Origin: Escherichia phage JLBYU09
Sequence record: OK272487.1
Strand: one strand, 5' to 3'
Length of the DNA stretch: 48,988 bases
Under the pieces are notes generated by a model that worked only from the letters and a program-made list of their open reading frames with translations, ran no database searches and was not told where the DNA came from. Within the stretch, counting starts at the first letter, position 1. Each line of letters starts with the position of its first letter. Made by a program: the position numbers and the translations under genes. Of the stretch, positions 1,773 through 48,988 are shown piece after piece.

Positions 1773-1805
1773 TTTCAAATCCTCGCATTCGTTGTCGATG
1801 TGTGT

Positions 1806-1850
1806 AATATATCGGATTGCGAGGATTGAGTTTTAACAAAAAGTGCTATT
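1806..1850 (-). promoter_or_regulatory. conserved-box promoter-like element (box, 19-nt spacer, TATATT)
   Basis: Minus-strand AATAGCACTTTTTGTTAAAA at 1850-1831, -10-like TATATT at 1811-1806; stop TAA of gene 1850..2116 abuts the box. Confidence 0.5.
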
Positions 1851-2644: not shown

Positions 2645-2682
2645 TTGCTTTCTCCTGATGGGTATCTCGTTTCGATGTGTGC

Positions 2683-2727
2683 ATTATGCCGAATCCAGTC
2701 AGGCACGTTTTAACAAAAAGTGCTATT
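2683..2727 (-). promoter_or_regulatory. conserved-box promoter-like element (box, 19-nt spacer, CATAAT)
   Basis: Minus-strand AATAGCACTTTTTGTTAAAA at 2727-2708; CATAAT at 2688-2683. Confidence 0.5.
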
Positions 2728-3969: not shown

Positions 3970-4863
3970 ATGTTAAAACTTGCTGACATTAAATTCCCGA
4001 TCACCTTCGAATCTCGCGGCATTGGTCATTACATTTTTACCGATGAAAAAACATGCCATAAGGTTGATATGAATAGCGACAAACTAACCCCATCAACAAT
4101 GGAGATTGAACACTTTATTGATGCACACAATACGCACTACAACGCACTTAAAGACTATGGCTATGCAATGCCAGGCTACACATGTTTGCACTACAAGCCA
4201 TATAAGGGCCAGGTGTTACCAGTGCGCTCACCGGAACGCGCAGAGATTCCGATGGTCAATATGAAAACCTGCGACTACAAAAAGCTGTGGTGCTTAAGTC
4301 TGGACAATATCAAGTATCCGATCACGTTCCACACGACTGGTAAGTCAACGATTCGCTACACATCGCGCGACAATGGCGTTTATAGCGATGGTACGAAATC
4401 AGGGTTGAAAGTTGATTTCTTTGTCAATGGTCACAACAAGTTCAATCCGCACAATGAAAAGGATAAGGTGTACTACGTGGAAGATATTACAAAACACTTG
4501 TTTGGAGAAACACCATTCGGCGGCGGTAAGACGTCAATTCAACAAATCATTGGCGAGGAGATCCACAAGGCAGCCGTTGAAATGAAAGCGCCTGGAGGAT
4601 GGCGTATTGATAAGAGCGCAATTGTCTATCAAGAAATAGTAACGCAGGGCGCAATTGAAGACATGCCACTTGCCGCCACGCTAAAAGGCGTCCAAATTGC
4701 GGATGGCACATGGTTTGAATTAACGGCAAAACCAAAGACTATCGAGATTCATGATGATGTTGTTATTCTTCTGCTTCATTACGGTAGCGCAAAAAACCGT
4801 ACCGTTGCGGGTGAGATTAGCATCAAGCGCGGAACGATGGTTAAGTGGAATGTCAAAGTGTAA
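3970..4863 (+). CDS. hypothetical protein with internal duplication
   Basis: 297 aa; AGGAGA RBS; two related modules (IKFPITFESRG and IKYPITFHTTG); stop TAA abuts the conserved box. Confidence 0.6.
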   Translation: MLKLADIKFPITFESRGIGHYIFTDEKTCHKVDMNSDKLTPSTMEIEHFIDAHNTHYNALKDYGYAMPGYTCLHYKPYKGQVLPVRSPERAEIPMVNMKTCDYKKLWCLSLDNIKYPITFHTTGKSTIRYTSRDNGVYSDGTKSGLKVDFFVNGHNKFNPHNEKDKVYYVEDITKHLFGETPFGGGKTSIQQIIGEEIHKAAVEMKAPGGWRIDKSAIVYQEIVTQGAIEDMPLAATLKGVQIADGTWFELTAKPKTIEIHDDVVILLLHYGSAKNRTVAGEISIKRGTMVKWNVKV

Positions 4864-4906
4864 ATAGCACGAATTGTTAAAACTCAAATGTGGGGCCAGG
4901 TATAAT
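4863..4906 (+). promoter_or_regulatory. conserved-box promoter-like element (box, 18-nt spacer, TATAAT)
   Basis: AATAGCACGAATTGTTAAAA at 4863-4882; TATAAT at 4901-4906 sits in the loop of GGCC...GGCC. Confidence 0.5.
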
Positions 4907-4936
4907 GGCCTCACTTTCAACGAAGGAGATAAAACG

Positions 4937-5374
4937 ATGTACATTAGCAAGAAGATGAAATGCGTTTCCGTTAATTATGGTTGTGCTGGAATGTTCAAGC
5001 CTGGCGAAATCTATACGGCGCAAAAACTGAAATCATCAACCGGATCCTTTTACGTGAGCAATAGTAAAGGGCATCGCATGTTCCTGAACGGTGGCGAAGG
5101 CACTAAGGTTATGGCGCACGCTATGGTGATTGCTGAATTTGAGGAAGTGAAAGATGGAACAAATAAGCGCGTTAAGCACAAGTTTATTGATAATCATGGC
5201 GATGCACTTGAGGTATATAAGTTCGGCGATCGCGTGTTTATTGATGGCACATTTGAAGGTGGACGCAGGCCGGATTTTAGATCGATACTCACCATTGACC
5301 AGGTGCGCAAGCTGGCGGATAAGTTAAATGATCTGGCAGATGAAATCGAATACAAGCAAATTCATTTTAATTGA
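4937..5374 (+). CDS. hypothetical protein
   Basis: Track ORF 4874..5374; start moved to ATG 4937 after GAAGGAGA RBS. Confidence 0.55.
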   Translation: MYISKKMKCVSVNYGCAGMFKPGEIYTAQKLKSSTGSFYVSNSKGHRMFLNGGEGTKVMAHAMVIAEFEEVKDGTNKRVKHKFIDNHGDALEVYKFGDRVFIDGTFEGGRRPDFRSILTIDQVRKLADKLNDLADEIEYKQIHFN

Positions 5375-5385
5375 TAGGTTTGATA

Positions 5386-5925
5386 ATGAAAAAATACGAA
5401 TTTGAACTTTGGGGCAGCAAATACCATTTTTCCACGAGCAAGCCGATTGTTATCGTTGACCTGGACGGAACGTTATCAGACGGAACGCATCGCTTACACC
5501 TGCTTCCGACAGAAGATTTGCACCTTACAGAAAGCTGGTCTGAGTTCAATAAGGCGGCTGTTGGCGATTCGCCGATTAAGAGCACGGTTGCAGTGGTTAA
5601 CGGTTTGTGGATGTCAGGATTTGCCATCGTTATCCTGACCGGACGTAGCGATGAAGTGATGGAGGACACCTGCAAATGGATTAACGAAAACGGCATCAAG
5701 TACGATGCGTTAATCATGCGCCGCAAGGAAGACAACCGCAAAGACACAATCATTAAAGAAGAAGTCTTGCGCGCTATCGGCCTAGAAAACATCGTGTGCG
5801 CTTTTGATGATTCGCCGAACGTGGTTAAGCACTTCCGCAGCCTGGGAATCACAACCTATCAGGTCACGGAATACGACAAGCCACATAATCATATCCAATC
5901 GCATGGCGTGGAGGAATTGAAATGA
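5386..5925 (+). CDS. HAD-superfamily phosphatase (polynucleotide 3-phosphatase / nucleotidase-like)
   Basis: HAD motif I VIVDLDGTL, downstream LTGR and FDDS motifs; start taken at ATG 5386. Confidence 0.6.
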   Translation: MKKYEFELWGSKYHFSTSKPIVIVDLDGTLSDGTHRLHLLPTEDLHLTESWSEFNKAAVGDSPIKSTVAVVNGLWMSGFAIVILTGRSDEVMEDTCKWINENGIKYDALIMRRKEDNRKDTIIKEEVLRAIGLENIVCAFDDSPNVVKHFRSLGITTYQVTEYDKPHNHIQSHGVEELK

Positions 5926-6135
5926 TCTGGTTACTTTTAATCTTTGTCACAAGTTACAATTCCGCCGCTATTGAATCGCAAGAGTTCCACGGCGAATCAA
6001 GATGCCAGGAAGCACGANNACNNGNNNNNCNNNANNTCNACGGNCGAATCAAGATGCCAGGAAGCACGAAAACAAGTTGTTCTCCACATGTCAGATAGTG
6101 GGAAAGATGTAACAGCGCTATGCGTTCGTAAATAG
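5922..6135 (+). CDS. small membrane protein (MIWLL family), interrupted by N-run and tandem duplicate
   Basis: ATG 5922 overlaps the upstream stop, GGAGGA RBS; N-terminus MIWLLLIFVTSYNS; frame ambiguous across Ns 6018-6043. Confidence 0.3.
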
Positions 6136-6175
6136 CACTTTTTGCAAAAACACATTATCGGGCTTGCGGTATAGT
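6131..6175 (+). promoter_or_regulatory. conserved-box promoter-like element (box variant TTTTTGCAAAAA, 19-nt spacer, TATAGT)
   Basis: AATAGCACTTTTTGCAAAAA at 6131-6150; TATAGT at 6170-6175 in the loop of GGGCTT...AAGCCC. Confidence 0.5.
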
Positions 6176-6246
6176 AAGCCCATCGACAACAAGCGAGGAT
6201 TAAATCATGGTTAATAAAGTTGAGTTTTTCAAAGCGGTAGACAAGA

Positions 6247-6471
6247 TTGACGGCGCGCCAAGTTTCTTTGCTATCCATTCCATTGACGGCGAAAGACGTT
6301 GCATACAACGTGATTAGTCGAGACGGTATATCAAAACTTAGTGACCTGGTGGGTTATATTGTGGCAAACGGGAAATGTGCATGGCCCGATTCGCCACGAG
6401 AGCCGCGCCGCCGCGACATGCAAAATCCAGTCCTGCTTTACACGCTGGTAATTGAAGGAGTCAACAAATGA
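6247..6471 (+). CDS. hypothetical protein (5-prime end uncertain, possible frameshift)
   Basis: Track ORF with TTG start; an RBS-preceded ATG at 6207 opens a 36-aa ORF in another frame; 3-prime end is coupled (ATGA) to the next gene. Confidence 0.35.
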   Translation: MTARQVSLLSIPLTAKDVAYNVISRDGISKLSDLVGYIVANGKCAWPDSPREPRRRDMQNPVLLYTLVIEGVNK

Positions 6472-6653
6472 TTTGGTTACTTGTATTTTTGGTGGTTTTC
6501 TTTTATATTTCAGGCTTATTCATCTTCCGTGCGCTGGTGAAAACATGCGATTGCACGGATAAAGATCATCCTCTTGTTCTGATGTTCTGGTTTGTGTGGT
6601 TTTGGGTTGCGCTTTATCAGATTGTACGGGATAAAAGCGGATTCAAGTGGTGA
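6468..6653 (+). CDS. small membrane protein (MIWLL family)
   Basis: 61 aa; N-terminus MIWLLVFLVVFFYISGLFIF; GAAGGAG RBS; paralog of the 5922 gene. Confidence 0.55.
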   Translation: MIWLLVFLVVFFYISGLFIFRALVKTCDCTDKDHPLVLMFWFVWFWVALYQIVRDKSGFKW

Positions 6654-6847
6654 TTCTTACTATAGCGCATTCACGCAGTGCGCTATGTTGAGATAACAAC
6701 ATGAGATCATGAAGATGCGAAACTTCGAAAAAATCGTATCCAAAAAGAAGCGATACAGCTACCACGAGCACCAAGAGATGAATCAACGCTATCGCAATAA
6801 GCGCCAGCGCAAAGGTAAACATTCCGGTAAACATGGAGAAAATCAAT

Positions 6848-7438
6848 ATGAAACGCGACATTATCATTCTTAACGGACCGCCAGGAGTTGGCAAAGATAC
6901 GCTTGCGGCATACTTAACGGGTCATCGTTACGCAGCGGTTAAAGCGTCATTTAAACAGCCTATGTTCGATATTGCATTCTCCATGCTTGGCGTTTACCGA
7001 TATGACGAGTTCATTGATCTGTATAACGACCGTGAGCAGAAAGAAAAGCCTCAAGCAATCTTGCAAGGTAAGTCTCCGCGACAATTCATGATCTGGATTA
7101 GCGAAGAAGTCATGAAGCCAGCTTTTGGCGAGCAATATTTTGGGAATCGCATGGTTGAGCAAGTACACGAGATGTACAGAGATTTAGCTGTTGTAATTAG
7201 TGATGGCGGATTCCCTGAAGAAATCAAGCCGCTCGTTAAGGCAGGCCATGAAGTTCACATTTGCCGACTGCATCGCGAAGGATTCACGTTTGATGGCGAT
7301 TCACGAAACTATATTGACCTGAGCGGATACCATCACCGAGTCAAGCATTACGACTTCACAATGATTGATGGCGAGCCAGAAAAGACTGTTGACGAGATCA
7401 TCAAAGCGGTGCAGTGGAAACACACAAAGATTGAATAG
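6848..7438 (+). CDS. P-loop nucleotide kinase (dNMP-kinase-like)
   Basis: Walker A LNGPPGVGKDT with GKDT and a GKSP motif, recalled as resembling T4 gp1 dNMP kinase; start moved to ATG 6848 after GGAG RBS; stop TAG inside the conserved box. Confidence 0.55.
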   Translation: MKRDIIILNGPPGVGKDTLAAYLTGHRYAAVKASFKQPMFDIAFSMLGVYRYDEFIDLYNDREQKEKPQAILQGKSPRQFMIWISEEVMKPAFGEQYFGNRMVEQVHEMYRDLAVVISDGGFPEEIKPLVKAGHEVHICRLHREGFTFDGDSRNYIDLSGYHHRVKHYDFTMIDGEPEKTVDEIIKAVQWKHTKIE

Positions 7439-7478
7439 CACGAATTGCTAAAAGCGGGGCGCAATGCCTCGCTATAAT
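7434..7478 (+). promoter_or_regulatory. conserved-box promoter-like element (box, 19-nt spacer, TATAAT)
   Basis: AATAGCACGAATTGCTAAAA at 7434-7453; TATAAT at 7473-7478. Confidence 0.5.
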
Positions 7479-7508
7479 GCAAACACCAATCAACGAGAGG
7501 AAATCATC

Positions 7509-7910
7509 ATGGTAGAGTTAAACGACATTCGCGTTGGAACAAAATTTCGCGTAACCTGGGCAGATGAATATTGCGGCGTTAGCAAGGGCCAGGTTGTTAC
7601 TGTGGATAGTATTTATCGCGGATGCAGCAAAGACTTTCGCCGCCCACGCATCAAGAATGGCTATATCATTACTCGCCGTTTTGGATTTGATCATTATTGC
7701 GTAGTGGCGACTCAAGGAGTTTTGATTGAGCTTAAGCGAATCAGCGATCATCGCGGCTGTCATGTTAAGACAATGAAGACACCATCTCAGCGATCGCGAT
7801 ACGATGCGCGCAGGATGCGCAGGCTTGCACGAAACGCGATCAAGTTCAAAAAGCCTGGTGGTAACTTTTACCGAATGTACAAAGGGATTGCGCGAAATGC
7901 TGGAAAATAA
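7509..7910 (+). CDS. hypothetical protein, basic C-terminus
   Basis: Track ORF 7464..7910; start moved to ATG 7509 after GAGAGGAAA RBS. Confidence 0.5.
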   Translation: MVELNDIRVGTKFRVTWADEYCGVSKGQVVTVDSIYRGCSKDFRRPRIKNGYIITRRFGFDHYCVVATQGVLIELKRISDHRGCHVKTMKTPSQRSRYDARRMRRLARNAIKFKKPGGNFYRMYKGIARNAGK

Positions 7911-8028
7911 CAACAACGCAACCAATCCAAAGCCGCCATTTGATTTTCATGAAATCATGATTGTGTTATTCTTGATTCTCTTAGTTATTTATTCAGTGAG
8001 GGCCGCACTATGGTTTTTAACGCACTAA
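7897..8028 (+). CDS. small membrane protein (43 aa)
   Basis: Internal ATG of track ORF 7804..8028 overlapping the upstream stop; hydrophobic IMIVLFLILLVIYSV. Confidence 0.35.
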   Translation: MLENNNNATNPKPPFDFHEIMIVLFLILLVIYSVRAALWFLTH

Positions 8029-8273
8029 AACGAATCTTTAAACCTGAATACCGGATCGTTGCTTGCACAGAATGCAAGATTTATTACCTGCAACGCCGCC
8101 GCGTTATTAGTGGGGATTGGGAATATCTGACGGATGATGCTTTCGGATTTTGGGCTATGGAGTTCAATAGCTACAGCGAAGCGCGTGAATACGCTAAAAA
8201 GTTGCACAAGTTCAGACCTTACAAGCTGCGTTTGCTGGTTGTCAAAAAATGCGATGTGTTGGATCACGAATGA
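8010..8273 (+). CDS. hypothetical protein
   Basis: 87 aa ORF in the co-directional early block. Confidence 0.5.
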   Translation: MVFNALKRIFKPEYRIVACTECKIYYLQRRRVISGDWEYLTDDAFGFWAMEFNSYSEAREYAKKLHKFRPYKLRLLVVKKCDVLDHE

Positions 8274-8449
8274 AAAGAGTAATTATCATTTTTATTACCA
8301 TTATCGCTGGTTGCTACCTGGCTTATAATTATAGCGGCATTGTTGAGTCAATCGGCGGGTTGATTATCTTCATGGCTGGCGGGTATGCTGGCTATTGTGA
8401 TGGATTCGAAAACGGAAAGCGTTACATGCTGACCGGAAAAAAGAAGTAA
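8270..8449 (+). CDS. small membrane protein
   Basis: ATGA overlap with upstream gene; two hydrophobic segments (VIIIFITIIAGCYLAY, GGLIIFMAGGYAGY). Confidence 0.5.
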   Translation: MKRVIIIFITIIAGCYLAYNYSGIVESIGGLIIFMAGGYAGYCDGFENGKRYMLTGKKK

Positions 8450-8491
8450 TGTTAACCGCGCCGCTCCGGTGGCGCTAAAAGGAGGAAGCAA

Positions 8492-8749
8492 ATGGCTAAA
8501 AGCAATCGTAAAATGTTGATTAACGCATTCGAAAAGGCAGCGCTTGAGCGTGGCTGGAATGACTCATTTCACACAGCAAACTGTATCCGCCGTTACGGAT
8601 TCAAGAATTGCCGCTCCTGGGCGCGTCAAATGGCTTCATGGTATGATCTTGATGCGCATTACCTTGATATGGATTGCGCCCTTGTTGAAATGATTGAGCA
8701 GGCCGCATTAGAGGATNGANCANNNNCGCANTNNNNNNTNGACCATTAA
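8492..8749 (+). CDS. hypothetical protein (3-prime end crosses N-run)
   Basis: AAAGGAGGAAGC RBS; Ns 8717-8738; true stop may be 8800-8802. Confidence 0.5.
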   Translation: MAKSNRKMLINAFEKAALERGWNDSFHTANCIRRYGFKNCRSWARQMASWYDLDAHYLDMDCALVEMIEQAALEDXXXXXXXXDH

Positions 8750-8800
8750 CGCAATCTGATTTTGACGATTTTGTGCGCGATGAAATTTATTATATGAGCT

Positions 8801-8845
8801 AATAGCACTTTTTGTTAAAACTTCCGCGAGGGCATTTGTTAAAGT
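8801..8845 (+). promoter_or_regulatory. conserved-box promoter-like element (box, 19-nt spacer, TAAAGT)
   Basis: AATAGCACTTTTTGTTAAAA at 8801-8820; TAAAGT at 8840-8845; stops TAA/TAG abut the box. Confidence 0.45.
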
Positions 8846-8877
8846 GTCCTCATTGAAGCGAAATAGAGGAAAGCGCA

Positions 8878-9096
8878 ATGAAAATCAAGATTATAGACGT
8901 GAACAATGCCATTAGTGGTGACGAACTTACACTTGAGGAGTGCGGGATTGAGGTTGGCGATGTGTTCGAAGTTACCGGACAATATCGCGATGGAACTTTG
9001 AGCATTCAAGCGCCACGAGATACCGATGATGGTTGCATCAAGGCTGGCGATGAATTGAGCGTTAACGAAGGTGAATATGAGGTTGTAGAAGAATGA
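8878..9096 (+). CDS. hypothetical acidic protein
   Basis: 72 aa; AGAGGAAAG RBS. Confidence 0.55.
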   Translation: MKIKIIDVNNAISGDELTLEECGIEVGDVFEVTGQYRDGTLSIQAPRDTDDGCIKAGDELSVNEGEYEVVEE

Positions 9097-16813: not shown

Positions 16814-17248
16814 ATGAGTGATTATTCAGTCATTGTTGGCGCTGAGTCGCCAGGGTGCATGGTCGATTCTTCAATAATGGTGATTAACGGATCTTTCGTG
16901 TGCGGAGATGAATTTATTGCGCCAGGTAAGATTGTGCGACTATCACATATAATAAATGGATACAAAATAGCAAGTGTTCATGGGGATCTTGTTATTGGCG
17001 TGGTAGTAAGGCCGCCGGACTCGTGCATATATGAGGAGGGTGATCCCGTTAATGTGGTTAGTAGAGGTAGTGTGTGGTGCTTAACTTCTGAGAGCGAAGC
17101 GCCAGAATATGGAGATAAAGTATTTGTAACGCAAGATGGAGATGCGGCATACAGTGAAGGCGACTTGCTGAGCGGTTGGATCTTTACTGGCGAACATGTA
17201 AAGGTTGATCATGATTCATATATTGTCGGGGTAAGCATTAGCGCATAA
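16814..17248 (+). CDS. capsid-associated protein (paralog 2)
   Basis: 144 aa; shares the core GSVWCL...APEYGDKV with GRVWML...APAFGATI of paralog 1. Confidence 0.45.
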   Translation: MSDYSVIVGAESPGCMVDSSIMVINGSFVCGDEFIAPGKIVRLSHIINGYKIASVHGDLVIGVVVRPPDSCIYEEGDPVNVVSRGSVWCLTSESEAPEYGDKVFVTQDGDAAYSEGDLLSGWIFTGEHVKVDHDSYIVGVSISA

Positions 17249-17331
17249 CACAAAATTATGTTGCACGTTTAACAAAAAATGCTATCATTGTGGCGTTACA
17301 TACTAACAGCCTTTATATATGGAGGAAGAAA

Positions 17332-20988: not shown

Positions 20989-21058
20989 TTACTGTACAAT
21001 CATGCTACACGATTCATAATCAATTCTTTTAACAAAAAGTGCTATCAAGGAGAAAGAA

Positions 21059-31790: not shown

Positions 31791-31820
31791 TTTGTGTCTC
31801 CTTAGTTGTTATTGGTTGCA

Positions 31821-31864
31821 ACTATACACGATCTTGCGGTGGGCGTTTAGCAAAAAGTGCTATT
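31821..31864 (-). promoter_or_regulatory. conserved-box promoter-like element (box variant, 19-nt spacer, TATAGT)
   Basis: Minus-strand AATAGCACTTTTTGCTAAA at 31864-31846; TATAGT at 31826-31821; upstream of the Cor-like gene. Confidence 0.5.
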
Positions 31865-32289: not shown

Positions 32290-33351
32290 ATGAATAAGTT
32301 TATGGCGTACACCAGCGAAGAAATGAGTAACGAGCTTTATCACGATCCAGAAGCGTGGACGGCTGATTATGTTAGCGGTTCAAGCCTGGCAGAGATTTAC
32401 AGCACATGCCCGGCAGCGTGGAAGTTCAAGCCGCGTGATGACAAGAGCAAGGCGCTAGTTTTCGGTACGCAGTCGCATACCAACTTTGAAAGCAAGGAGC
32501 TTTTCGAAAAAACCTATCGCCGTGCGCCAGCACCAGAAGAATTTAAGGATCTGATAACCAGCCAAACGGCGCTTGCTGCAAAGCTGAAATCATTTGGACT
32601 GAAAGGTACAACCGGAAAGACTTATCCCGAACTTATAAAAATGATGGTTGACTGCGGAGAAGACCTTAACGTCATGTGGTTAATCGACATGATCGCAGAA
32701 AGTCAGGCCAGGGCCGATGGGGTTCAGTTAATCGAGGCTAAAGATTACGATTCTTGCGTGGCAATGCGCCAGGTTCTGGAATCAATACCGGAACATAACG
32801 CATGTATGAATAGCAAGACGGCACAACGTGAATTATCGTTGTTCGGTGAAATTAACGGCGTAAAAGTCAAAGTGCGATGCGATCACGTTGACGTAACAAA
32901 GAACGTCACCGCAACGCTTATTGATGGTTACGATGAAAAAGGTCAGCCAATTTGCCGCGATATTATTTATCCAGAGGCCATTGTGATCACAGACTACAAA
33001 ACCACAATGAGCGCGAATCCGGCTGAGTTTATGCGCCTGGCTTACAATCACGGCTATTATTTGAAAATGGCGTTGCAATGTGATTTATTCAGAAAAGCGT
33101 ATCCAGAAGAAAAGCGACCTATAGTTGTTCGACTGTTAGCGCAAGAGAAGAAAGAGCCTTATTTGCCGTTGGCTTTCCGCATGAACAGCGAGCAATTGAA
33201 GATCGGGCGCATTCAGTACATGAGCGTAATTAACCAGTTTGCCATGTGCCAGCAACATGACGTTTGGCCTTCGTATTCAAACGGCGAGCCGGAGGTTTGC
33301 CTTGATACTCCTGATTGGGTGCGACGCCAGTTTAAGCAATATCTTATTTAA
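32290..33351 (+). CDS. recombination exonuclease (PD-(D/E)xK family, putative)
   Basis: 353 aa; D...D-Y-K signature (CDHVD, ITDYKTT); first gene of an operon with Erf and SSB. Confidence 0.55.
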   Translation: MNKFMAYTSEEMSNELYHDPEAWTADYVSGSSLAEIYSTCPAAWKFKPRDDKSKALVFGTQSHTNFESKELFEKTYRRAPAPEEFKDLITSQTALAAKLKSFGLKGTTGKTYPELIKMMVDCGEDLNVMWLIDMIAESQARADGVQLIEAKDYDSCVAMRQVLESIPEHNACMNSKTAQRELSLFGEINGVKVKVRCDHVDVTKNVTATLIDGYDEKGQPICRDIIYPEAIVITDYKTTMSANPAEFMRLAYNHGYYLKMALQCDLFRKAYPEEKRPIVVRLLAQEKKEPYLPLAFRMNSEQLKIGRIQYMSVINQFAMCQQHDVWPSYSNGEPEVCLDTPDWVRRQFKQYLI

Positions 33352-46073: not shown

Positions 46074-46106
46074 TTTTAAAATCCTCATATTCGCTTCGAT
46101 GAAACA

Positions 46107-46151
46107 AATATACCCGATACGAGATCAGGTGTTTTAACAAAAAGTGCTATT
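46107..46151 (-). promoter_or_regulatory. conserved-box promoter-like element (box, 19-nt spacer, TATATT)
   Basis: Minus-strand AATAGCACTTTTTGTTAAAA at 46151-46132; TATATT at 46112-46107. Confidence 0.5.
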
Positions 46152-48246: not shown

Positions 48247-48273
48247 TGGTGATAACTCCTTTTTGATGCGGCA

Positions 48274-48318
48274 ATAATACCGCACCAATGCTACCCGCAT
48301 TTAACAAAAAATGCTATT
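48274..48318 (-). promoter_or_regulatory. conserved-box promoter-like element (box variant, 19-nt spacer, TATTAT)
   Basis: Minus-strand AATAGCATTTTTTGTTAAAT at 48318-48299; TATTAT at 48279-48274 in the loop of GCGG...CCGC. Confidence 0.5.
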
Positions 48319-48918: not shown

Positions 48919-48949
48919 CTTTTATTTCTCCTTTCGTTTCGGTGAAGTG

Positions 48950-48988
48950 ATTATGCCAGGCTTTTACACCTGGCTTTTAACAAAAAGT
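48950..48988 (-). promoter_or_regulatory. conserved-box promoter-like element split across the window ends
   Basis: Minus-strand box AATAGCACTTTTTGTTAAAA spans 6..1 and 48988..48975; spacer is the 6-bp-stem hairpin GCCAGG...CCTGGC; CATAAT at 48955-48950. Confidence 0.5.

Follow-up and report, generated by a model that had tools for sequence, protein, structure and literature searches.

The stretch of DNA analysed here, 48,988 bp in full and referred to as the window, is the genome of the T1-like siphophage Escherichia phage JLBYU09 (OK272487.1). Its bases 4000-9000 are 99.5% identical to Escherichia phage JLBYU41, which is classified as Drexlerviridae, Tempevirinae, Hanrivervirus, and they also match about 190 further T1-like phages at a lower identity than with JLBYU41. 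The window contains 15 copies of a known Drexlerviridae repeat, ATAGCACnnnTTGnTAAAA, hereafter the box, with a TATAAT-like hexamer 18-19 nt after each copy. The box pattern ATAGCACTTTTTGTTAAAA gave 13 matches at three or fewer mismatches, as compared to 0.09 expected by chance, and two extra copies, one across the window ends and one with 4 mismatches at 38839-38857 (-), bring the total to 15. The subject of this study is the dyad symmetry that lies in the spacer between box and hexamer or encloses the hexamer, as in the copy that begins at position 4864.

The repeat was recognized in a 2024 re-annotation of phage TLS as a 21-nt direct repeat, aaATAGCACnnnTTGnTAAAA, present at 21 places, oriented with transcription and located about 76 nt before start codons; it was also found in T1, Rtp and Rogue1, and its function was left open as a stoperator, enhancer or UP element (PMC11447400). 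The boxes in the window are copies of this T1-like direct repeat. A literature search for the exact box string gave unrelated matches only. Scanning IMG/VR with the exact box yielded 120 T1-like stretches (L001-L120; 1.04 Mb) with 463 unique elements, the consensus of which agrees with aaATAGCACnnnTTGnTAAAA. These elements fall into 188 groups defined by the downstream gene, which are not fully independent in a sample rich in related phages. One exact box match was located on L017 (IMGVR_UViG_648019609_000001), a contig of 174,436 bp, far above the size of T1-like genomes. The energy thresholds used below are arbitrary, and identical thresholds were used for the controls.

Layout of the box element

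In the family alignment, the hexamer is located at offset 19 after the box in 81% of 454 elements, with A at its second position in 98% and T at its sixth in 97%. Upstream of the hexamer, G is present at -14 in 81% and T at -15 in only 41% of the elements, and a conserved C(-1)A(+1) follows seven bases after the hexamer. Downstream of the putative start come TCGAAACGA, a ribosome-binding site and ATG, and the base composition runs from C-rich to G-rich, then the hexamer and then C-rich again. As judged from its sequence, the box element has the hallmarks of a -10-dependent sigma-70 promoter, with a predicted start site. In such a promoter the box would span -50 to -32, with 19 nt of spacer between it and an extended -10-type hexamer; a discriminator of 6 nt would then lead to an A as the start. 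A -35 element is expected 16-18 bp upstream of the -10 element, but TTGnTA is located 21-22 bp upstream of the hexamer, which is too distant for a -35 role, and TTAAAA 18-19 bp upstream. Only one box copy passed a standard sigma-70 promoter scan. A -10 element 17 bp after TTGnTA was also considered, but the position matrix shows none.

The predicted initial transcribed sequence, A-TCGAAACGA (about +1 to +11; e.g. 4913-4925 and 42937-42947), is conserved family-wide, and in one class of elements (class E, defined below) the beginning of the spacer pairs with the first bases of this sequence. The six-base discriminators (e.g. 4907-4912, 6176-6181 and 8846-8851) are C-rich (44-52% C) and G-poor, which in class E is a composition forced by the stem. 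GC-rich discriminators in E. coli are associated with short-lived open complexes and stringent control, and through such a discriminator the nested hairpin may additionally shape the kinetics of the promoter.

Stem-loops nested in the spacer and discriminator

To quantify the folding potential, we folded the sequences from +1 to +34 after 14 of the boxes and compared them with dinucleotide shuffles; the copy at 38839 was folded separately. Copies are referred to by the lowest coordinate of their box, with the strand as a sign. The z values were -2.1 or lower for 9 of the 14 copies, and the summed folding energy was -132 kcal/mol versus -64 +/- 6.7 kcal/mol for the shuffles (z about -10), a value reached by none of 500 shuffles. 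A second, independent folding tool gave the same picture in the window. No significant local hairpin was found in five of the 14 copies (1831-, 2708-, 21027-, 31845- and 39328+), and the dyad at 17267- is marginal. Since position-specific composition could have mimicked dyads, we also used a column-permuted null, which keeps the composition of every column. With this null, 10% of the sequences folded at -8 kcal/mol or lower, whereas 75% of 156 non-orthologous elements from the 120 IMG/VR contigs did so (z of the mean minimum free energy, MFE, -36). Chance is excluded as the origin of the dyads. They had been proposed from six examples in the window, all of which are present, four of them within 1-2 nt of where they had been placed and the first two starting about 5 nt off; with G·U pairs allowed, the stems are longer than those originally noticed.

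The idea that the hexamers lie inside or directly after the hairpins was borne out, and two geometries dominate. Class U elements have a stem of 7-9 bp and a loop of 4-6 nt located wholly within the spacer and ending at the first base of the hexamer. Class E elements have their 5' arm in the spacer, a loop of about TTGnTA and a 3' arm made up of the end of the hexamer and the discriminator, often with an outer helix that extends to +1 to +7. The hexamer tracks the class: 28 of the 62 class E groups have TATAGT, as compared to 1 of the 51 class U groups, and CATAAT is the commonest class U hexamer (21 of 51 groups). The variable positions of the hexamer thus appear to have been recruited into the stem.

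We also examined whether pairing is retained among related phages. In the orthologue groups, 132 stem pairs were variable; 30 of these keep pairing by two-sided changes and 25 by one-sided changes, while 77 have at least one disrupted sequence. In a control in which the 3' partner was slid by 1-2 columns, 18 pairs were two-sided, 41 one-sided and 530 disrupted, so that 59 of 589 pairs were kept as compared to 55 of 132. An ungapped alignment of 51 class E elements had 91.6% of the cells paired versus 72% when shuffled and 45-57% when slid, a percentage that is biased since the set was chosen by its predicted fold. The count of double-change cells is free of this bias and amounted to 87 versus 28.8 +/- 3.8 in shuffled alignments (0 of 500). 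At the copies 38839 and 48299, orthologues have unrelated stem sequences at the same place. The pairing is thus conserved across related phages through compensatory changes while the spacer sequences differ, and the suggestion that structure is under selection is strongly supported.

Selection acts on the sense strand

For each group we selected the best stem by a rule that treats both strands alike and tolerates a single interior mismatch, whatever its kind. The single mismatches were G·T in 54 cases, A·C in 6 and other in 8 (binomial p = 1e-10), whereas the column-permuted null yielded 112 versus 112. The asymmetry persisted when positions of the hexamer were left out (37 versus 5) and in class U stems alone (23 versus 0). 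Likewise, the MFE of the sense strand was -10.2 kcal/mol as compared to -8.0 kcal/mol for the reverse complement (Wilcoxon p = 2e-18), a difference of 2.2 kcal/mol. A G·T on one strand reads as A·C on the other, so a cruciform cannot give this asymmetry; the asymmetry indicates that the sense strand is selected in single-stranded form, most naturally as RNA. Loops are mostly 4-6 nt and vary freely in sequence and length; among the tetraloops, 20 of 66 are of the GNRA type, with about 2 expected. A terminator on the antisense strand, with the hairpin followed by the TTTT of the box, was considered and rejected, as the mismatches there become A·C and the tail score does not improve. No Rfam family matched in the window.

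Hairpins accompany co-oriented upstream genes

An element was considered co-oriented if a same-strand open reading frame (ORF) of at least 50 codons, from start to stop, ends at or just before the box, and a hairpin was called at a 40-nt MFE of -9 kcal/mol or lower. By these definitions, 109 of 129 co-oriented groups but none of the 9 divergent groups have a hairpin (Fisher p = 2.6e-7). An earlier, cruder context rule, since replaced by the start-to-stop rule, had separated the contexts less clearly (p = 0.04). Within the window, no significant hairpin is present in the four copies that lack a co-oriented upstream gene (39328+, 31845-, 21027- and 17267-). A local hairpin is present in 9 of the 11 co-oriented copies, the exceptions being 1831-, where a long-range helix takes its place, and 2708-, with none. 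The subtype of the box was rejected as the cause, because hairpins accompany AAAC-type boxes where these are in tandem context and are absent from AAAA-type boxes where the context is divergent.

The spacers of all three copies located directly after a convincing canonical terminator are unstructured (0.0, -1.4 and -3.8 kcal/mol). In JLBYU41, gaps between tandem genes were examined at a threshold of -13 kcal/mol, since 57% of the coding controls pass -9 kcal/mol. A hairpin at this threshold was found in 18 of 25 gaps without a box, mostly with T-tracts, and in 7 of 10 gaps with a box, as compared to 14% of the coding controls. The stems are located upstream of or across the predicted start site, so RNA from the box promoter would hold at most a 3' arm.

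The stem-loops as probable gene-end structures

The pairing within the box elements is non-random, covaries, is specific to the sense strand and depends on the upstream context. We put a probability of about 0.6 on the reading that the dyads encode gene-end RNA stem-loops of the upstream transcription unit, nested in the spacer and discriminator of the next promoter, and we infer that the hairpin is a site at which an RNA 3' end arises or is protected. T1-like phages would, by this account, place a stem-loop in nearly every gap between tandem genes, and it would form in sense-strand transcripts that arrive from the co-oriented gene ending at the box. Since only the spacer and the discriminator are free to vary in such a promoter, the stem would be encoded there, in fixed registers. 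The hairpin would serve the upstream unit and not promoter recognition: it would terminate or attenuate transcription, weakly or in a promoter-coupled manner, and/or block 3' exonucleases; that is, termination may be weak and helped by the overlapping promoter, or the upstream mRNA may be protected at its 3' end.

A few copies resemble terminators more closely. At 38839 and in all its orthologues, the stem is followed by T5-6 and the hexamer lies in the loop, which makes this copy a canonical-looking intrinsic terminator. The TLS terminators T57 and T62, predicted with ARNold, start 7 and 0 nt after the direct repeats DR10 and DR12 (PMC11447400), and the hairpin orthologous to the 38839 copy is T57, directly after DR10. 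The copies 42887 and 46132 also pass a simple terminator scan, but are borderline.

Several observations weigh against the interpretation as gene-end structures. The mean tail score is 2.5 versus about 5 for the canonical terminators of the phage, the T content of class U discriminators is 28% versus 31% in hairpin-less copies, and class E stems are followed by AUCGAAACGA. With no U-tract in most copies, classical intrinsic termination is supported only for a minority of them. The tolerance of G·T would also be compatible with a hairpin formed by the non-template strand as single-stranded DNA. The context calls rest on crude ORF rules, the divergent groups number only 9 and include several that lack a good hexamer, so that they may be a different functional class, and about 16% of the co-oriented groups have no strong local hairpin. 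Finally, the searchable literature holds no published maps of start sites or 3' ends for T1-like phages, and both the start site and any termination are here inferred from sequence.

The box is itself a partial palindrome, TAGCA-N5-TG(C/T)TA with a variable centre. All five Watson-Crick pairs are present in 181 of the 463 elements and four in 263, where the fifth pair is usually G·T, and the same bases are able to form a small 5-bp RNA hairpin. The centre of the dyad lies at -42 from the putative start, which is where class II activators are located, lambda cI at PRM being an example. A protein of 157 aa whose helix-turn-helix (HTH) is Cro/YdaS-like is encoded at 38841-39314 (-); it matches PHROG 2856, 'transcriptional regulator', at 3e-78 and Cro proteins in PDB at 2e-5 to 3e-4, and falls just below threshold in Pfam. 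The gene has a near-consensus sigma-70 promoter, TTGAGT-16-TATAAT at 39393-39366 (-), and is followed by the terminator-in-box copy; its TLS orthologue has one of only three sigma-70-like promoters found. The Cro-like protein is a candidate box-binding factor. A bolder extension, which we consider rather doubtful, is that hairpin and promoter form an obligatory module in which hairpins lacking a U-tract terminate only while the promoter is occupied, perhaps by RNA polymerase recruited through a Cro-like dimer on the palindromic box at -42, so that the insulation of 15-20 T1-like transcription units would be switched during infection.

Alternative explanations

The sense-RNA and context evidence is shared by the explanation that the hairpin acts on the downstream gene in read-through RNA, as a processing site, by masking the leader or ribosome-binding site such that only promoter-initiated mRNA is translated, by keeping Rho or RNase E off untranslated RNA, or together with the box as a nut-like element. 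The outer helices of class E, which pair the spacer with +1 to +7, the pairing of the 1831 spacer with the downstream Shine-Dalgarno sequence, kept in relatives, and the conserved, single-stranded box directly 5' of the hairpin all fit such a role. However, most hairpins are 20-30 nt away from the ribosome-binding site and make no contact with it, stems of 7-15 bp are short for RNase III, and the unconserved loops make a loop-binding protein such as lambda N unlikely. The hairpin is also dispensable after a canonical terminator, which is a better match to a function at the 3' end, and we consider a downstream role unlikely, though it deserves some weight. Transcription might instead start at or just after the box, where TGnTAAAA provides a weak, extended -10-like string, and the hairpin would then be the protective 5'-terminal stem-loop of a box-driven mRNA; 5' hairpins are known to stabilize mRNAs. 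This was one of the roles named in the original prediction. The string in the box lacks the essential final T, and the hexamer downstream shows, at a fixed distance, the conserved A2, T6, G-14 and C(-1)A(+1) of a classical -10 signature. The start predicted from it falls downstream of or inside the 3' arm and would split the class E stems, and copies that have no co-oriented upstream gene keep box and hexamer but not the hairpin. A 5'-terminal role is thus very improbable.

Two further proposals of the original prediction place the function of the dyads in DNA and fared no better. A cruciform or single-strand hairpin might act at initiation, as in supercoil-sensitive or N4-like hairpin promoters, and the overlap of the dyad with the -10 region in fixed registers, as well as a distance from TTGnTA to the hexamer that is abnormal for sigma-70, would be in line with this. 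The mismatch asymmetry speaks against it, as the template strand would carry the bad mismatches, and so do the divergent copies of the same promoter, which have no hairpin. Nor does a phage RNA polymerase appear among the annotated genes of JLBYU41 or TLS. That extrusion of a cruciform shortens the long distance between TTGnTA and the hexamer was considered and rejected: an extruded hairpin of 19-21 nt would leave about 2 bp between box and hexamer, and the asymmetry of the mismatches is contrary to it. We regard a function of the dyads as DNA structures as less probable still. Least credible of all is that they are operators for a dimeric repressor or activator. Operators classically take the form of a dyad over the promoter core, and the phage has a Cro-like HTH gene, but the stem sequences are unrelated between copies and between orthologues, with only the pairing kept, G·U wobbles are tolerated, and the conserved, partly palindromic element is the box and not the spacer.

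Box copies in the window

The features of the 15 copies are listed in Table 1. Two of the copies on the minus strand lie against the late operons: the 17267 copy, of which TLS DR7 is the counterpart, is located in a 41-nt gap before the major capsid gene, and the 21027 copy in a short gap after the major tail gene. These two copies may be protein-binding sites or antisense promoters. The partner of the spacer in the long-range helix of the 1831 copy (-17.4 kcal/mol, z -3.8) is the downstream gene's Shine-Dalgarno region, and two relatives retain the helix with a U·G change. Masking of the ribosome-binding site by this helix would be confined to read-through transcripts and would not affect those initiated at the box promoter.

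Table 1. Coordinates of box elements, hexamers and predicted stems in the window (energies in kcal/mol; z for the focal copy, 4864, is relative to shuffles).
Element (strand)	Box	Hexamer	Stem (5' arm/3' arm)	Predicted +1	Energy	z	Remarks
4864..4914 (+)	4864-4882	TATAAT 4901-4906, in loop and 3' arm	4890-4898/4906-4914, 9 bp, one G·U	A at 4913	-16.4	-4.3	GGCC 4894-4897 and GGCC 4907-4910 flank TATAAT; upstream gene 3970-4863 (+) ends at box
6132..6182 (+)	6132-6150	TATAGT 6170-6175	6160-6167/6174-6181	6182	-14.9	about -4.5 to -5	
8802..8858 (+)	8802-8820	TAAAGT 8840-8845	inner 8828-8837/8842-8851; outer 8821-8824/8855-8858, reaching +4 to +7	8852	-16.8		both helices covary among paralogues and orthologues
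41846..41896 (+)	41846-41864	CATAAT 41884-41889	41866-41873/41878-41885, wholly in spacer	41896	-12.3	about -3	
42887..42937 (+)	42887-42905	CATAAT 42925-42930	42907-42913/42919-42925	42937	-13.6		T-rich discriminator TATTTC; A-U to C-G compensatory change in orthologues
46100..46150 (-)	46132-46150	TATATT 46107-46112	46124-46130/46112-46118, one U·G	46100			
48263..48317 (-)	48299-48317	TATTAT 48274-48279, in loop and arms	48278-48288/48263-48273, 11 bp	48267	-18.2		
48943..48988 (-)	48975 to window end and bases 1-5	CATAAT 48950-48955	48968-48974/48955-48961	48943	-13.9	about -4	wrap-around copy
38798..38857 (-)	38839-38857, AAAGCACTAATTGCTAAAA	TATCAT 38813-38818	38820-38832/38804-38815, around hexamer				degenerate fifteenth box; TTTTTT 38798-38803
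1775..1849 (-)	1831-1849	TATATT 1806-1811	no local hairpin; long-range helix 1818-1829/1775-1787				
2676..2726 (-)	2708-2726	CATAAT 2683-2688	weak dyad only			about 0	
39328..39377 (+)	39328-39346	TATTAT 39365-39370	no significant hairpin				divergent from Cro-like gene 38841-39314 (-)
31814..31863 (-)	31845-31863	TATAGT 31821-31826	no hairpin				divergent from 32290-33351 (+)
20991..21045 (-)	21027-21045	poor	no significant hairpin				against late tail-gene operon
17238..17285 (-)	17267-17285	no good hexamer	marginal dyad				against late head-gene operon

Comparison with known systems

With these results, a Drexlerviridae repeat of open function gains a fixed -10 hexamer and a nested RNA stem-loop, and the transcription units of a phage family that is widely used in therapy and in studies of defence systems can thereby be mapped concretely. 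A dyad in a promoter need not mean an operator or a DNA structure, and the G·T/A·C asymmetry and the orientation of the upstream gene are simple tests that separate selection at the RNA level from selection at the DNA level using sequences only. The box itself is already known, and two of the hairpins were previously listed as terminators without comment: the study of the TLS repeat concerns the same box and lists T57 and T62, but neither the fixed -10 hexamer nor the hairpins in the spacer are described there (PMC11447400). A sense-RNA stem-loop in the spacer or discriminator that is context-dependent and covaries family-wide appears to be undescribed in the searchable literature.

The early hairpin promoters of phage N4 likewise have an inverted repeat centred near -12 of a phage promoter. 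However, the N4 hairpin forms on the template strand, has a 5-7 bp stem, a 3-nt loop and a conserved sequence, and is used by the phage's own virion RNA polymerase, whereas the elements described here have loops of 4-8 nt and free sequences, are selected on the non-template sense strand and occur in phages with no annotated polymerase. The lambda nut site, with boxA and boxB, has a conserved loop bound by N, but the loops here vary freely. Intercistronic stabilizers such as the repetitive extragenic palindromic (REP) hairpins of E. coli malEFG lack a U-tract and are thought to block 3'-to-5' exonucleases and to set differential mRNA stability. They are stable hairpins between cistrons, as here, but are not embedded in promoters. 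With intrinsic terminators the elements share a GC-rich stem-loop in the nascent RNA just after a gene, and GNRA-type loops are common; they differ in that most of the box-nested hairpins have no U-tract beyond that of the -10 hexamer.

Promoter-coupled terminators have been mapped in bacteria, where a stem-loop overlaps promoter elements and the promoter boosts termination (Fletcher, Forrest, Grainger and colleagues, bioRxiv 10.64898/2026.08.19.745784). Such arrangements are enriched between tandem genes and save intergenic space; stand-alone terminators have stronger hairpins, and how efficiently the coupled ones terminate can depend on their promoter (bioRxiv 10.64898/2026.08.19.745784). 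If the phage hairpins terminate, they would provide more than 150 natural, sequence-diverse modules of a terminator inside a promoter, with which the coupling of promoters and terminators could be tested and compact synthetic designs aided. Both systems have the stem-loop of the upstream unit overlapping the next promoter on the same strand, here a predicted one, between tandem genes. In the bacterial promoter-coupled terminators, the stem falls on the -35 region, with a T-tract ahead of the -10 element and a termination site about 10 bp upstream of the start. In contrast, the stem of the phage elements fills the spacer from box to hexamer or encloses the hexamer, with no T-tract between stem and hexamer; it belongs to a promoter, predicted from sequence, that recurs in the phage genome and carries a conserved box upstream.

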